DNA from: an uncultured Thermoplasmatales archaeon | Lineage (GTDB): Archaea > Thermoplasmatota > E2 > DHVEG-1 | Reading direction: 5' to 3' | Length of the DNA stretch: 64,000 nt | NCBI GenBank assembly: GCA_964636235.1 | Contig: CAZWQV010000001.1 | Location: forward strand, 13,022 to 77,021 | Shown here: in pieces, positions 28,684 through 59,322 of the stretch | Layout of the letters: each line of letters starts with the position of its first letter | Position numbering within the stretch: the stretch's first letter is position 1 | Made by a program: the position numbers and the translations under genes | Notes under the pieces: model-generated | Seen by the model: the letters and a program-made list of their open reading frames with translations, nothing else | The model's database searches: none | What the model was told of the DNA's origin: nothing

Positions 28684-29520
28684 TTATCCTTCTTGGACTG
28701 GGACTCTCCAATCAAGTCCAGGAGTTCGTAGTCCAATTTTTGGGATTAATGAAAGACGACGTTTATGTTGACTTGATTTTCTAAGTTGATGAATACGATT
28801 GACATCTTCGATGGAAACAGATACTTGTTGGGCAATCTTCTGCTGAGAGAGTTTACATTCCAAACCATATAATATCTGATCAAGTTGTTCATACTTTAAT
28901 CGTAGCTCTTTTTCATCAGTCTGTCCTTTCCATAATCCTGCAGTTGGAGGCTTTTTGATTATTTCTGAGGGTATATCTAAGTATCGGGCAAGTTCAAAAA
29001 CCTGTGTTTTATAGATATCTCCCAAGGGCATGATATCTACACCACCATCACCATATTTTGTGAAATACCCAATTAACAACTCTGATTTATTAGATGTACC
29101 ACATACCAAACTTTTAGTTTTATTGGCATAAGAGTATAGTAACACCATTCTCAATCGTGCCTTAATATTTGCCTTTGTTAGTTGATCTATATCAACATCC
29201 ATTGTATGAACCACAGAATCAACTAAATCTGAAATTTCAATGGTTTGGCATGATAAATGAAACCGATCCACTAATGTTTTAACATGTTCCCTATCTGATT
29301 GTGGAGTAGCCTTTTCAGGTAAAAAAAGGCAGTGAGTATTTTTTAACTCTGGCATCTGTTTGCATATAACAGCCATTACCGCAGAATCAACTCCCCCAGA
29401 AAGACCTAATACAACCGAATTGACATGAGCAGATTCAACATATGATTTAATAAAAGATTTTAAAATGATAATGGCATTTTCGGAATCAAAACTTGGTTTT
29501 AATGAAATAACATCACCTTT
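28684..29520 (-). CDS. nadE: NH3-dependent NAD+ synthetase
   Basis: GLSGGVDS PP-loop; conserved N-terminal LKPSFD block lies upstream of the first ATG (29376) and the frame is open back to a TAA (complement of 29521-29523), so the start codon is uncertain/non-canonical. Confidence 0.8.
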   Translation of the reverse strand, partial: KGDVISLKPSFDSENAIIILKSFIKSYVESAHVNSVVLGLSGGVDSAVMAVICKQMPELKNTHCLFLPEKATPQSDREHVKTLVDRFHLSCQTIEISDLVDSVVHTMDVDIDQLTKANIKARLRMVLLYSYANKTKSLVCGTSNKSELLIGYFTKYGDGGVDIMPLGDIYKTQVFELARYLDIPSEIIKKPPTAGLWKGQTDEKELRLKYEQLDQILYGLECKLSQQKIAQQVSVSIEDVNRIHQLRKSSQHKRRLSLIPKIGLRTPGLDWRVPVQEG

Positions 29521-53023: not shown

Positions 53024-55831
53024 TTGAAAGATATCGTTATAAAAGGAGCAAGAGAACATAATCTTCAAAACATAAGTGTGCAACTTCCAAGAGATAAATT
53101 CATCGTTATCACTGGCCTTTCTGGATCAGGTAAATCAACTCTTGCTTTTGATACTATTTATGCTGAAGGACAGCGAAGATATGTTGAATCATTATCTGCA
53201 TATGCTAGGCAGTTTCTTGGCCTTATGAATAAACCAGATGTTGATAGTATCGATGGATTATCACCTGCCATATCAATAGAGCAGAAAACAACAAGTAAAA
53301 ATCCAAGAAGTACCGTTGGCACGATTACTGAGATCTATGATTATCTCAGATTACTCTTCGCTCGAGTGGGAACTCCATATTGCCCAATCCATCATGAAAA
53401 AATCGAATCACAAACAGCTGAAAATATTGCCGCAACTATTGCTGATAAGTACAAAGAAATGATCACAATACTTTCTCCTATTATTCGACAGAAAAAAGGA
53501 ACATATGAGCAACTTTTTAAAGATTTAAACCAAGAAGGATACATACGAGTACGTGTTGATAAAGCGATATATAGAACAGATGAGACTATATCATTGGATA
53601 GATACAAACAACATGATATTGAACTAGTCATTGACCGACTGAAACCAAATGATTCCACGAGATTAACAGAAGCATGTGAACATGCACTAAAAAAGTCAGA
53701 AGGATTATTGGTCGTTCTTGATTCGGAGAATAATGAACAGTTATTTTCTTCAAAAATGGCTTGTCCTATCTGCGGTCTTGCTTTTGAAGAATTACAACCA
53801 AGAATGTTTTCATTTAACAGCCCATTCGGTGCTTGTGAAACTTGTCATGGTCTTGGAATAAACATGGAATTTGACCCGGATTTAATAATTCCAGACAAAG
53901 CTAAATCAATATCAGATGGTGCAATAAGGCTATATAAAGGGATACATGATAGATGGAGAATAAAATATCTAGGTGCAGTGGCCAACCATTTTGGTTTTGA
54001 TATTTTTACTCCAATAATGGATCTTTCGGAGCAACAATTCGATGCGCTTATGTATGGATCTTCTGATAGAATTAGATTCAATCTTTCCATGAGACATGGA
54101 TCAACCAATTGGTCAGGGATAAGACAATGGGAAGGACTAATCCCACAGTCAGATCGATTATATAAACAGACTGAATCAGATTATCGAAGAAGAGACCTTG
54201 AAAAATTTATGAGAGTCTATCCTTGTCCAGTTTGTAATGGAAAAAGACTCAAACCAAAAGCATTAGCTGTAAAAATTAATGATAAGACCATTGCAGATGT
54301 AACAGATATGAGCATTAAACAATCGATTCTCTTTTTTAAATCGTTAATATTATCAAAAAAGCAGCAAGAAATCGCCTGGCAGATTTTAAAGGAGATTAAT
54401 GCCCGACTTCACTTCCTAGACAATGTTGGATTAAGTTATCTAACTCTTTCTCGTAACTCTGGAACATTATCTGGCGGAGAAGCGCAACGAATTAGACTTG
54501 CAACACAAATCGGATCTAATCTGATGGGAGTTATTTATATTCTTGATGAACCATCTATTGGACTTCATCAAAGAGACAATAAAAAATTAATTGATACCTT
54601 GCATCATCTAAGAGATATCGGAAATACCTTAATTGTTGTTGAACATGATGAAGAGACAATTAGAAACTCTGATTATATAATCGATATGGGACCAGGTGCT
54701 GGCATTCATGGTGGAAAAATTGTTGCAAAAGGAAATGTATCTGAAATTGAAAATCATCCCTCATCATTAACTGGGAAATATTTGTCAGGAAAACTTGCTA
54801 TTTCCATTCCAACAAAGAGAAGAACATCAAATAATTATATTCATCTGTATGGTTGTAAAGAGCATAATTTAAAAAATATTGATGTTGATATTCCACTAGG
54901 CGTTCTCACACTCGTTACTGGTGTATCTGGAAGTGGCAAATCTACACTGATCTATGATATTTTATATCCTGCTCTAAAAAAAGAAATCTACAAATCACGG
55001 GTTACGACAGGAGCATATGAATCTCTTGGTTATGATGATAAAATTGATAAAGTAATAGTCATCGATCAAAGTCCAATAGGTAAAACCCCTCGAAGCAATC
55101 CATCGACATATACAAAAGTGTTTGATGAAATTAGAAAACTTTTTGCCCAGACCCAAGAGGCGAAAAAACGTGGATATAAACCAGGACGTTTTTCATTCAA
55201 TGTGAAAGGAGGTAGATGTGAAGCCTGTGCAGGAGATGGTGTGATAAAAATTGAAATGAATTTTTTACCAGATATTTACGTACAATGCGAAGAGTGCAAA
55301 GGAAAAAGATATAACAAAGAAACCCTAGATGTTACATATAAAGGAAAAAATATCGCCGACGTTCTAGACATGAGTGTGGAAGAAGCGTTATCATTTTTTG
55401 AAAATATTCCATATATCAAACGAAAATTGAAGACACTTTCACAAGTGGGACTTGATTATATTAAATTAGGGCAAAGTTCAACAACTTTGTCTGGAGGAGA
55501 AGCACAACGTATTAAATTAACAAGAGAACTGTCAAAAAGGAGTACAGGAAATACCATCTATTTGTTAGATGAACCAACCACTGGTTTGCATTTTCATGAT
55601 GTCAAAAAACTCATTGAAGTATTAAATAATCTGGTAGACAAAGGTAATAGTATAATTGTCATCGAACATAATCTTGAAGTAATCAAAAATGCTGATTATA
55701 TCATTGATTTAGGTCCTGAGGGAGGAGATCTTGGCGGAAGAATTATTGCTACAGGTACTCCCGAGGAAATTGTTAAACGAAAAAACAGTTATACTGGTGA
55801 GGTATTAAAACCAGTATTAAGCTCAAAATAA
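53024..55831 (+). CDS. uvrA: Excinuclease ABC subunit A
   Basis: 935 aa; two ABC ATPase modules ([18 protein letters not shown]), zinc-finger CxxC pairs, LSGGEAQRI signatures. Confidence 0.93.
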
Positions 55832-55840
55832 TTGTCATAT

Positions 55841-57391
55841 ATGTTTCATACCGATCATATCCCAAATAAACCAGGCTGCTATCTGTTTAAAAATTCGAAA
55901 GGTATTATTTTATATGTTGGGAAAGCAAAAAACCTAAAGAAACGATTAAATAGTTACCAACAAAAAAAGAATCATGATAGTAAAACAATTTCTCTTTTAC
56001 AACAGGTTACTACTGTTGATTTTATTATTACAGATAATGAAGTTGAAGCATTAGTTTTAGAAAACACACTCATTAAAAAACATCAACCAAAATACAATAT
56101 CCGATTAAAAGACTCAAAAGGATTTTCATATATAAAAATAACAGATGAACCATTTCCAAGAGTCATTATTGCAAGGCAAAAACAAGGTAAAGGAACATTT
56201 ATTGGCCCATTTGTTTCCGCTGCAGAAAGAGATTACATCCTCCAATTTATTCAAAAAACATTTCAACTGAGAACCTGTAATAAACTGCCAAAAAAACAAT
56301 GCCTTCGCTATCATATACATTTATGCAAAGCACCATGCATCAATAACATATCGCAAGATGATTATCTAAAGCTTATTACGCATGTGAAACATATTTTGAC
56401 CGGGCACATCAGTAAAGCAATCACATCTCTTGAATCAGAAATGAAAATGTTTGCAGATAATCAACAATTTGAACAAGCTCTTGAGAGAAGAAATCAGATT
56501 CAAGCATTAAAGCATCTTCAAGAAAAACAGAAAATGGAACGAGAAAAAAGATTCAACGAAGATATTATTAATTATCTCATTGAAGATGATTCCATGTACA
56601 TTATGATGTTTAATATTTACAAGGGAACATTAACCAATAAACAAGAATTCATGTTTGAATCATCTGAAGATGCATTTGAGCAATTTTTAATTCAGTATTA
56701 TACAGAAAATCCAATCCCTAAACAGATAATTATACCAAAAAAGATATCCTCTGCGTTTGACACCTATTTTTCTCAAATTAAAAAAAGCAAAGTACAATGT
56801 ATTGTCCCTCAGAAAGGGGAAAAAAAACAATTACTTTCTCTTATTGAAAAAAATATTGAAATTACATTTTTTGCTTCCACTAAAAAAATTTCATTACTTC
56901 AACAGAAATTACGTCTTCATGAAAAACCAACCGTTATCGAATGTTTTGATATCTCGCATCTATCAGGTACAAGCATGGTTGGATCGATGGTTCAGTTCCG
57001 AAATGGAAAACCAGACAAAACCAATTACAGAAGATTTCGAATTCGAAGTGTAAAAGGAATTGATGATGTTTCAGCTATTGGAGAAGTTGTCCGCCGCAGA
57101 TATAAAAGACTAAAAGAAGAGCGGCAGTTGTATCCAAATTTAATCATCATTGATGGTGGAAAGGGTCAGCTTAATAGAGCAATAAATGAACTTGATGAAT
57201 TAGGTGTTATCATCCCTATTATTAGTATCGCAAAGAAATTTGAAGAGATCTATATTCCGGGTCAATTACATCCCATACGTTTAAATAAAAAAGATAAAGC
57301 ATTACAATTTCTTCAAGAAATACGGGACGAAGCACATCGATTTGCCATTTCATATAATAGACTGCTTAGAAAAAAGGAGATGATCTCATAA
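55841..57391 (+). CDS. uvrC: Excinuclease ABC subunit C
   Basis: GIY-YIG N-terminus (PGCYLF ... LYVGKAKNL), UvrBC-interaction and RNase-H-like endonuclease domains; ATG at 55841 preferred over TTG at 55832. Confidence 0.9.
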   Translation: MFHTDHIPNKPGCYLFKNSKGIILYVGKAKNLKKRLNSYQQKKNHDSKTISLLQQVTTVDFIITDNEVEALVLENTLIKKHQPKYNIRLKDSKGFSYIKITDEPFPRVIIARQKQGKGTFIGPFVSAAERDYILQFIQKTFQLRTCNKLPKKQCLRYHIHLCKAPCINNISQDDYLKLITHVKHILTGHISKAITSLESEMKMFADNQQFEQALERRNQIQALKHLQEKQKMEREKRFNEDIINYLIEDDSMYIMMFNIYKGTLTNKQEFMFESSEDAFEQFLIQYYTENPIPKQIIIPKKISSAFDTYFSQIKKSKVQCIVPQKGEKKQLLSLIEKNIEITFFASTKKISLLQQKLRLHEKPTVIECFDISHLSGTSMVGSMVQFRNGKPDKTNYRRFRIRSVKGIDDVSAIGEVVRRRYKRLKEERQLYPNLIIIDGGKGQLNRAINELDELGVIIPIISIAKKFEEIYIPGQLHPIRLNKKDKALQFLQEIRDEAHRFAISYNRLLRKKEMIS

Positions 57392-59322
57392 CAGAATTTG
57401 AATTCACATCACCATTTCAGCCAAAAGGATCACAACCAGAGGCTATAAAAAAACTATCAAAAGGGATACAAAATAATTTTGATAAGCAAACCTTATTGGG
57501 AGTTACAGGGAGCGGAAAAACATATACCATGGCTAAAGTAATTCATGAGGCACAAAGACCAACTATTGTCATCGCCCATAACAAGACGTTGGCTATTCAA
57601 CTCTATAATGAATTCAAGGAGTTTTTCCCTCACAATCGTGTTGAATATTTTGTATCATATTATGATTATTATCAACCGGAATCATATATTCCTTCGAAAG
57701 ATCTTTATATTGAAAAAGATGCAGATATTAACCCAAAAATTGAACAAATGAGACTTTCAGCAACGGCATCTCTTTTATCTAGAAGAGATGTCATTGTCGT
57801 TGCCTCCGTATCTGCTATTTATAGTGTAGGCGATCCAACTGATTTTTCAAGAATGCGATTTGAATTTCAAAAAAACAGTCCCATCTCACGAGAAGAAATC
57901 ATTAATCAATTGGTCTTAATGCAGTATGAACGAAACGATTTTGATTTACAACAAGGTCGATTTAGAGTTAAGGGAGATGTTATTGATATCATACCAGGGT
58001 ATTATGATAATATTATTCGCATTGAATTATTTGGTGATGAAATTGAGCGGATTATAGAACTTGATAAAATAACAGCAAAGGTATTAGATGAATTTTCATA
58101 TCTTTATTTATTTCCCGCAAAACATTTTGTGATACCGGAGGAAAAAAAAGACAAAGCAATTGAGTCAATTAAACAAGAACTTGATGATACATTAACAAAT
58201 CTTGATATGATAGAAGCGCATCGATTAAAACAACGAACTCTTTATGATATCGAGATGATTGAAGAAACTGGTTTTTGTAAAGGAATTGAAAACTACTCTC
58301 GCCATTTTGATGGAAGAAAACCCGGTGATCGACCATATTGTTTACTTGATTATTTTCCTTCAGACTTTTTAATGTTTATTGACGAAAGTCATAGGACGAT
58401 TCCGCAGATTCATGCCATGCAACATGGTGACTATTCACGTAAGAAATCTCTAATTGAATATGGGTTTCGATTACCCAGTGCATTTGACAATAGACCTTTG
58501 ACGTTTGCTGAGTTTACTCAGTTCATGAATCATGTAATTTTTGTTTCCGCAACACCGGGAGACTATGAAATGCAGATTTCAAAACAGATAGTAGAGCAAA
58601 TCATTAGGCCCACGGGTCTTGTTGATCCTGAAGTTGATGTGCGCCCAATTGAGGGTCAAATAAAGGATTTAATCGATGAAATAAATAGAACCATCAAAAA
58701 TGGTCATCGTGTGATTGTAACAACGCTAACAAAGAAACTAGCTGAAGAATTATCAGAGTATTTATCAGAACAAGGAATTAAAACTCGGTACTTACATGCA
58801 GAAATTGACACACTTGAACGGACAGAAATAATTCGTGAACTTCGACTAGGTGAATTTGATGTATTAGTTGGCATTAATTTACTACGTGAAGGTTTGGATA
58901 TCCCTGAAATAGGATTTATTGGAATTCTTGATGCTGATAAAGAAGGGTTTTTACGTGATCAACGCAGTCTCATCCAGATTATTGGAAGAGCTGCAAGGAA
59001 CGCTGATGCAAAAGTTGTACTTTATGCTGATACGGTTACCGAGTCCATGCAAAAAGCATTGGATGAGACCATGCGGAGAAGAAATATGCAGATTGCATAT
59101 AATAAAAAACATAATATCATACCGCAAACCATTATTAAACCAATAAAGGAAAGAAAAATAGAAATTAAAGATACAAAACATATTCCACGATCAACCATTC
59201 CGGATATGATTAGAAAACTCGAAAGTGACATGAAGAAAGCATCAGATAGCCTAGATTTTGAACGTGCGATATTTTTAAGAGATAAAATAAAACAATTACG
59301 ATTGCGTTTATCAACAAAATAA
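57388..59322 (+). CDS. uvrB: Excinuclease ABC subunit B
   Basis: Helicase motifs (GVTGSGKT, DESH) and C-terminal UvrB/UvrC interaction helix; conserved N-terminus (FTSPFQPKGSQPEAI) lies upstream of the first ATG/TTG (57496) in an open frame bounded by TAG 57367-57369, so the start codon is non-canonical or unresolved. Confidence 0.88.
   Translation: MTEFEFTSPFQPKGSQPEAIKKLSKGIQNNFDKQTLLGVTGSGKTYTMAKVIHEAQRPTIVIAHNKTLAIQLYNEFKEFFPHNRVEYFVSYYDYYQPESYIPSKDLYIEKDADINPKIEQMRLSATASLLSRRDVIVVASVSAIYSVGDPTDFSRMRFEFQKNSPISREEIINQLVLMQYERNDFDLQQGRFRVKGDVIDIIPGYYDNIIRIELFGDEIERIIELDKITAKVLDEFSYLYLFPAKHFVIPEEKKDKAIESIKQELDDTLTNLDMIEAHRLKQRTLYDIEMIEETGFCKGIENYSRHFDGRKPGDRPYCLLDYFPSDFLMFIDESHRTIPQIHAMQHGDYSRKKSLIEYGFRLPSAFDNRPLTFAEFTQFMNHVIFVSATPGDYEMQISKQIVEQIIRPTGLVDPEVDVRPIEGQIKDLIDEINRTIKNGHRVIVTTLTKKLAEELSEYLSEQGIKTRYLHAEIDTLERTEIIRELRLGEFDVLVGINLLREGLDIPEIGFIGILDADKEGFLRDQRSLIQIIGRAARNADAKVVLYADTVTESMQKALDETMRRRNMQIAYNKKHNIIPQTIIKPIKERKIEIKDTKHIPRSTIPDMIRKLESDMKKASDSLDFERAIFLRDKIKQLRLRLSTK

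Follow-up and report, generated by a model that had tools for sequence, protein, structure and literature searches.

A conserved AUA codon overlapping the uvrC stop is the probable start of uvrB in a lineage of uncultured archaea

The genes uvrA, uvrC and uvrB follow one another on the forward strand of a 64,000-nucleotide (nt) stretch of contig CAZWQV010000001.1, which comes from an uncultured archaeon of the Thermoplasmatales. We refer to this whole stretch as the window, and all coordinates are its own. Our subject is the junction between the last two genes, where the uvrB reading frame is open through the conserved beginning of the protein and offers no ATG, GTG or TTG ahead of it. An initial annotation of this DNA had remarked on the missing start and had offered a non-canonical initiator, translation coupled to uvrC, or an assembly indel as possible explanations. 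The evidence presented here points to an AUA codon, overlapping the uvrC stop, as the probable site of uvrB initiation. The features on which the argument turns are the following.

53024-55831, forward strand: uvrA, first gene of the uvrA-uvrC-uvrB row
55841-57391, forward strand: uvrC, 516 amino acids (aa) from ATG 55841 in the list of open reading frames (ORFs), with an alternative start at TTG 55832 and its TAA stop at 57389-57391
57367-57369, forward strand: in-frame TAG that bounds the uvrB reading frame on its upstream side (stop-to-stop ORF 57370-59322)
57375-57385, forward strand: extended Shine-Dalgarno (SD) sequence AGGAGaTGATC, matching the complement of the canonical 16S 3' tail at 10 of 11 positions and lying within the last uvrC codons (K-E-M-I)
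57388-57390, forward strand: ATA, the proposed uvrB initiation codon, overlapping the uvrC stop as ATAA 57388-57391
57388-59322, forward strand: uvrB as proposed, 644 codons plus stop from the ATA start, a full-length match to NF003673
57496-57498, forward strand: TTG, the first canonical start in the uvrB frame, adjoining the Walker A motif GVTGSGKT on its 5' side

The sequence and the ORF listing bear out the initial description of this junction. TAG 57367-57369 closes the uvrB frame on the upstream side, the 42 codons that follow are free of ATG, GTG and TTG until TTG 57496, and an in-frame ATA at 57388-57390 overlaps the uvrC stop, the end of uvrC reading CTT AGA AAA AAG GAG ATG ATC TCA TAA in its own frame. 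The initial annotation did not mention the out-of-frame ATG at 57380, which encodes Met516 of UvrC and forms part of the SD. The conserved N-terminal block of UvrB, which had been placed upstream of 57496, is there as well. The UvrB equivalog profile NF003673 (NCBIfam; TIGR00631) matches with 1004.8 bits, against a cutoff of 743, over profile positions 1-651 of 653, and this match begins at residue 9 of the translation from 57370, which is Glu 57394. Residue 4 of the solved UvrB structures aligns with residue 3 of the query, the third codon from 57388. The conserved UvrB N-terminus is therefore encoded upstream of every canonical start. A start-free uvrB leader of this kind is beyond chance expectation, as leaders of at least 40 codons without starts or stops occur in only two of about 50 credible window genes, uvrB and nadE, and both are coding by homology. 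Gene callers (P0001-P0003) place the uvrB start at TTG 57496 or ATG 57529, giving products of 608 or 597 aa.

Comparison with orthologs shows what stands at the start position elsewhere. In the closest ortholog from the genome collection, a Methanomicrobiales metagenome-assembled genome (L001), uvrB begins with GTG ACT GAG TTC GAG, which aligns with ATA ACA GAA TTT GAA of the window. With the UvrC C-terminus as query, 80 metagenomic loci were gathered, and these yielded 45 distinct junctions with a 4-nt uvrC-uvrB overlap. A canonical restart codon, always as NTGA, is present in 34 of them (ATG in 27, GTG in 5, TTG in 2). The ATGA, GTGA or TTGA of these relatives is missing from the other 11 junctions, the window included, which have ATA (10) or GTA (1) in the form of ATAA, ATAG or GTAG. 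The 4-nt overlap with the uvrC stop (NTRR) is itself invariant across all 45. Because it aligns with the GTG of L001 and with the ATG, GTG or TTG of the 34 canonical junctions, ATA 57388-57390 is the positional homolog of a start codon. The orthologs do not begin at the residue encoded at 57496, a possibility raised at the outset, and none of the sequences compared supplies a corrected version with a canonical start upstream.

The ATA codon is also conserved across diverged lineages. Three lineages with 81-85% identical UvrB keep the layout AAA AAG GAG ATG RTY WCA TAA, with ATA in the uvrB frame, and retain AAAAAGGAGATGRTYWCATAA at the junction although the proportion of synonymous differences (pS) is about 0.65; six more distant lineages keep ATA too. 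Downstream of it, Phe at +3, a hydrophobic residue at +5 and PKGSQP are conserved. The ratio of nonsynonymous to synonymous differences (pN/pS) among the ATA lineages, whose synonymous sites are near saturation at a pS of about 0.65, is 0.13-0.25 in the uvrB core; over the 36 codons that follow ATA it is 0.3-0.6, so that these too are under purifying selection. We rejected a start at an internal Met two codons before PKGSQP, since this Met is found only in some lineages (L085, L086) and is replaced by Phe or Leu in the window and in L091, L103, L123 and L130, and since the codons upstream of it are under purifying selection.

One junction among the relatives departs further from the canonical pattern. 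In L103/L105, near locus position 1650, the uvrB start position is occupied by GTA, which overlaps a TAG stop as GTAG; a strong AAGGAG lies upstream, and no canonical start is nearby. GTA is absent from the table-11 list of start codons.

The SD sequence in front of ATA is among the strongest in the window. Its duplex with the 16S tail, at -13.6 kcal/mol, ranks second of 51 window starts and is reached by 0.03% of background positions. The spacer in the uvrB register is 2 nt, inside the 1-5 nt range of ordinary window genes, which commonly use SDs complementary to AGGAGGTGATC. Across the junctions the strength of the SD varies together with the class of start. AAGGAG ends 8 nt before the start position in every non-canonical junction, and canonical junctions mostly read AAAAGAnTTGA. 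Accordingly, GGAG at -12 to -9 is found in 11/11 non-canonical and 1/34 canonical junctions (Fisher p = 1.2e-9, phylogeny ignored), and the mean duplex energy with the anti-SD is -12.0 kcal/mol in the former and -5.2 kcal/mol in the latter (Mann-Whitney p = 3e-6). The difference comes mainly from a synonymous choice, AAA or AAG, in one Lys codon of uvrC. On a tree of UvrC and UvrB the ATA lineages are interspersed with ATG lineages, and at least five switches of start class are needed in 100/100 bootstrap neighbour-joining (NJ) trees. One lineage, L139, has ATG together with GGAG and looks like an intermediate state.

On these comparisons we consider it very probable that AUA 57388-57390 is the start codon of uvrB, used in SD-assisted initiation or reinitiation. 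The non-canonical initiator proposed in the initial annotation is thus strongly supported, by the orthologous start position, by its conservation in diverged lineages and by the strong SD that always accompanies it.

A quite different reading of the same junction is that uvrB is misread or damaged: a sequencing error may hide an ATG, the gene may be a pseudogene without a start, or the true product may be a truncated one that begins at TTG 57496. The gene-caller models, at 597-608 aa, are indeed truncated, and for the window taken alone one G-to-A error at 57390 would suffice. Such an explanation retains almost no probability once other sequences are considered. Four independent assemblies (L081-L084), comprising the Logan assemblies of two sequencing runs and two Joint Genome Institute (JGI) metagenome assemblies, are base-for-base identical to the window at the junction (4/4), and the same architecture, with ATA or GTA at the same position, recurs in ten further diverged lineages, which refutes an assembly indel. 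Decay is contradicted by a uvrB frame that is intact over 644 codons and evolves with the low pN/pS of 0.13-0.25. Truncation is contradicted by purifying selection on the 36 codons that precede the Walker A motif and by the lack of an SD at TTG 57496, where the duplex energy is only -2.3 kcal/mol. Moreover, a product from this TTG would lose the conserved N-terminal strand and the PKGSQPEAI element, both of which align to solved UvrB structures.

Two changes of the genetic code were likewise tried and dropped. A reassignment of TGA, which would have forced the uvrC stop from TGA to TAA, is ruled out by at least eight credible window genes that end in TGA. Decoding of AUA as Met is ruled out by the 17 internal ATA codons of uvrB, which align with Ile (68%), Val (18%) and Leu and not with Met; nadE gave a similar result. 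Assembly error, genetic-code change and pseudogene are excluded as causes of the missing start.

A second route to a uvrB product without a start codon of its own is programmed -1 ribosomal frameshifting, which would join UvrC and UvrB in one fusion protein. The candidate site lies just downstream of the TAG.

57370-57376, forward strand: heptamer A_AAA_AAG in the uvrC zero frame, from which a -1 slip enters the uvrB frame; judged incidental

This is a textbook X_XXY_YYZ site, the -1 frame is that of uvrB and is open from 57370, the TAG ending at 57369, and the same heptamer is present in L085, L098, L103 and L130. A UvrC that lacks its C-terminal helix-hairpin-helix (HhH) domain, as here, would also suit a fusion, which would contain the junction peptide LLRKKGDDLITEFEF (LLRKKGDDLITEFEFTSPFQPK). 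Frameshifting of this type exists in archaea, in fucA1 of S. solfataricus (PMC8211752), and the window resembles that gene and E. coli dnaX, with their A_AAA_AAG or A_AAA_AAT sites, in having a perfect heptamer and a -1 frame that belongs to the downstream gene. It differs from both in having neither a downstream stimulatory structure nor an upstream SD stimulator, and in that the heptamer is not conserved among the lineages without a start. No significant structure lies 5-9 nt downstream, the fold of 57377-57470 having a z of -0.74, with 49/200 shuffles folding equally well or better, and no SD-like stimulator precedes the heptamer. Among the ATA lineages the heptamer is degenerate or absent (T_AAA_AAG in L086, G_AAA_AAG in L091, TCT AAG in L100, ACG AAG in L114, GAA AAG in L123), and in L100 a uvrB-frame TAA stands four codons ahead of ATA and is not followed by a slippery sequence. 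Between the heptamer and ATA, the uvrC frame has undergone conservative substitutions (I/V, S/T), whereas in the uvrB frame the substitutions are radical (D/G, L/H/Y). The AAA AAG codons, for their part, encode the conserved Lys-Lys of the UvrC tail and supply the G of the SD. Since the heptamer is not conserved and no structure follows it, we judge it incidental, and we regard frameshifting as a very unlikely source of UvrB.

Returning to initiation at AUA, other ATA or ATT starts had been suggested as something to look for in this genome, and one more was found, an ATT at the head of the gene for NAD+ synthase.

28684-29508, reverse strand: nadE (NAD+ synthase), with a proposed ATT start at 29508-29506 and a strong SD, AGGTGAT, at 29518-29512

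The nadE SD stands in the same register as that of uvrB. The first canonical start is ATG 29376; the Pfam and NCBIfam profiles begin upstream of it, and the SGGVDS motif is lost from a product that starts there. The ATT aligns with Met1 of the homologs (MSLTPSFD...), and a start there yields a protein of 274 aa, the length commonest among them; the predicted NadE begins (M)SLKPSFDSENAIIILK. Lineage L174, at 85%, has an identical leader, and a 76% lineage (L175/L176) has ATG. Gene callers give a nadE product of 230 aa. On the reverse strand a GGGGGAG at 29385-29395 (-11.0 kcal/mol) resembles an SD upstream of ATG 29376; it is the coding sequence of the SGG motif, about 16 nt upstream of that ATG and too far away for an SD, and it probably explains the truncated start of the gene callers. 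A genome-wide excess of hidden ATH starts is not supported, since a scan of the window for ATA, ATT, ATC or CTG codons that lie before the first canonical start and have a strong SD gave only uvrB and nadE, along with three trivial hits a single codon ahead of a canonical start. Because nadE has no upstream gene and comes first after a divergent promoter region, its ATT and SD suggest that SD-led initiation at AUH codons can work de novo in this organism, and not only by reinitiation.

We propose a model in which the extended duplex formed by AGGAGaUGAUC 57375-57385, in the last four sense codons of uvrC, would hold the small ribosomal subunit in register. This register would put AUA in the P site, where the initiator Met-tRNA would read it with a third-position mismatch, and the predicted UvrB product would begin (M)TEFEFTSPFQPKGSQ ((M)TEFEFTSPFQPK). 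Since the last two bases of AUA are also the first two of the uvrC stop (AUAA), part of the initiation is probably the work of ribosomes that have just finished uvrC and remain tethered by the SD; such reinitiation would be the expected behaviour of an ancestral AUGA, GUGA or UUGA overlap. A single G-to-A change would turn ATGA into ATAA, weakening the start from ATG to ATA and converting the uvrC stop from TGA to TAA at the same time. Among the junctions compared, the converted form occurs only together with a strong GGAG core, the product of a synonymous AAA-to-AAG change in a uvrC Lys codon. We would expect the consequence to be a UvrB output that is lowered and coupled to that of uvrC.

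Termination-reinitiation from uvrC, another of the initial proposals, is thus compatible with the junction and probably contributes, alongside a possible share of de novo SD-led initiation. In its extreme form the idea would dispense with the codon altogether, SD-tethered ribosomes resuming in the uvrB frame with ATA not recognised as a start. The overlap that is invariant across the 45 junctions would fit such codon-independent restarting, as would the double mismatch to AUG of the GTA in L103/L105 and the existence of ATAG and GTAG overlaps, where a return to NTG would abolish the stop. For archaea, moreover, there is published evidence of coupling at overlaps (PMC6728339). Against this, only NTG or NTA (N = A, G or T) is found at the position, so that its first two bases keep the pattern of a start codon, although the stop codon, too, requires the T. 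The nadE ATT stands in the same SD register with no upstream ORF except an out-of-frame mini-ORF of 4-5 codons, whose ATG lies inside the SD, and known reinitiation still uses an initiator tRNA and a start codon. We therefore think codon-independent restarting improbable, while recognizing that it largely overlaps with SD-assisted use of AUA and differs from it in emphasis only.

Several considerations weigh against our preferred interpretation of AUA as the uvrB start. The evidence for it is wholly computational and comparative. The anti-SD was assumed to be canonical, as the window holds no 16S rRNA 3' tail. The Fisher test was not corrected for phylogeny, and the NJ tree was built on 400 residues only. 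GTA in L103/L105 differs from AUG at two positions and is a poor fit to simple codon-anticodon recognition; this double mismatch hints at a restart that may be largely indifferent to which codon is present, with tethering and coupling perhaps carrying more weight. The window's own lineage may also make some fusion protein by low-level -1 frameshifting. Finally, a 2020 review of archaeal initiation names only AUG, GUG and UUG as start codons (PMC7531240).

If AUA is nonetheless the start, a broader and much more tentative idea follows. There may be a clade of uncultured Thermoplasmatota-like archaea in which SD-dependent start selection is relaxed, so that AUA, AUU and even GUA could serve as stable initiators, and in which a two-site switch at the uvrC-uvrB junction would set the UvrB:UvrC stoichiometry. 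We offer this as a possibility that the present data make less likely than the AUA start itself. Were it true, one nucleotide would set both the uvrC stop and the strength of the uvrB start, and a synonymous uvrC site would tune the SD, in a system whose state has changed at least five times among the relatives sampled.

Further observations concern the neighbouring genes and the source of the DNA. Gene callers start uvrC at ATG and give 516 aa, 519 aa being the longer form. The UvrC profile TIGR00194 scores 484.7 bits, with 539 of 574 as the last profile position matched, and the gene calls and Pfam lists for the identical contigs contain no HhH domain for UvrC. The UvrC of the whole clade (window 55841-57391; L081-L093) has only 516 aa and is without the C-terminal (HhH)2 DNA-binding domain. 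Bacterial UvrC carries this domain. At the other end of uvrC, the TAA stop of uvrA (55829-31) adjoins TTG 55832, and ATG 55841, the other candidate start, lies 9 nt further on. As neither candidate has a recognisable SD (-1.4 kcal/mol), translation of uvrC may also be coupled, in this case to uvrA.

Elsewhere in the window, on the reverse strand, a Peptidase_C25 gene (5814-7355) has a listed TTG start that overlaps the TGA of the gene upstream (TTGA 7319-7322). This TTG is without an SD (-0.3 kcal/mol), and the Pfam match begins at residue 70 of the stop-to-stop ORF. Among the relatives of UvrB, one of 867 aa (P0049) is interrupted by an insertion in which Pfam recognises intein and LAGLIDADG homing-endonuclease domains. 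That the source organism is an archaeon follows from its archaeal DnaG (NF003108, 531 bits) and from the closest named homologs, which are Thermoplasmatota at about 73-75%; a single search of genome-collection contigs returned no relatives closer than 69%.

The uvrB start is a real, conserved and previously mis-annotated feature, and this has practical consequences. Every assembly of the lineage has UvrB cut to 597-608 aa and NadE cut to 230 aa, the latter without the SGGVDS ATP-binding loop, and both would look defective in repair or metabolic reconstructions. The uvrC-uvrB overlap also provides a natural, replicated experiment on the trade-off between start strength, SD strength and stop identity.

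Non-canonical starts of this kind have precedents in bacteria. E. coli infC and pcnB start with AUU. The closest parallel is found in Firmicutes, where S. aureus infC (AUA), ccpN (AUA), cvfC1 (AUU) and citZ (AUA) combine conserved starts with extended SDs and reach about 10% of the output of AUG in reporters (PMC13009471). Like these, the starts described here are AUH codons at the orthologous start position, conserved in relatives and preceded by a long, strong SD at proper spacing, and attenuated initiation would be expected of them. Here, however, the organism is an archaeon, with aIF1, aIF1A and aIF2 instead of IF3, and the genes encode a DNA-repair helicase and an NAD synthase rather than regulators or IF3. 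Further, the uvrB start overlaps the upstream stop, with one nucleotide setting the identity of both, at least five switches have occurred among relatives, and GUA is also present. It appears that archaeal initiation, which relies on aIF1 and aIF2 and not on IF3, can use AUA or AUU when a long SD duplex is available, as was recently found in Staphylococcus. A limited full-text literature search for AUA start codons in archaea returned nothing relevant and, as far as that search shows, natural initiation at AUA and GUA would, if confirmed, be the first documented in Archaea.

The overlap itself has a well-studied counterpart in the 4-nt stop/start coupling of AUGA junctions. Experiments in Haloferax volcanii and E. 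coli have demonstrated termination-reinitiation at 4-nt overlaps with the help of an SD (Huber et al. 2019, PMC6728339). A 2023 study finds these overlaps enriched in genes that encode complex subunits and raises non-canonical starts only as a possible cause of rare -5 overlaps (ATT; PMC10666635). The uvrC-uvrB pair conforms to this pattern in being co-directional, in encoding interacting subunits, and in having a 4-nt overlap with an SD in the 3' end of the upstream gene. It departs from it in that the window and ten other lineages have ATAA, ATAG or GTAG, so that the restart codon is non-canonical. Unlike the AUGA couplings and the S. aureus starts, both the coupling and the start are here predicted from sequence.

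Compensation between start codon and SD is a third point of contact. Belinky, Rogozin and Koonin (2017, PMC5622118) inferred it statistically for AUG, GUG and UUG only, and the direction of individual switches was not established. Here as there, weaker starts go with stronger or better-conserved SDs, as the GGAG counts of 11/11 and 1/34 illustrate. Our comparison differs in setting canonical codons against NUA at a single orthologous site, in a compensating change that lies at a synonymous site of the upstream gene, and in its replication over at least five switches. No principle is overturned by these findings, as non-canonical starts and SD compensation are already known phenomena. The best reading is that the uvrB start belongs with the extended-SD AUA and AUU starts known from bacteria, as an archaeal variant that is bound to a stop-start overlap and shows SD compensation replicated across lineages.

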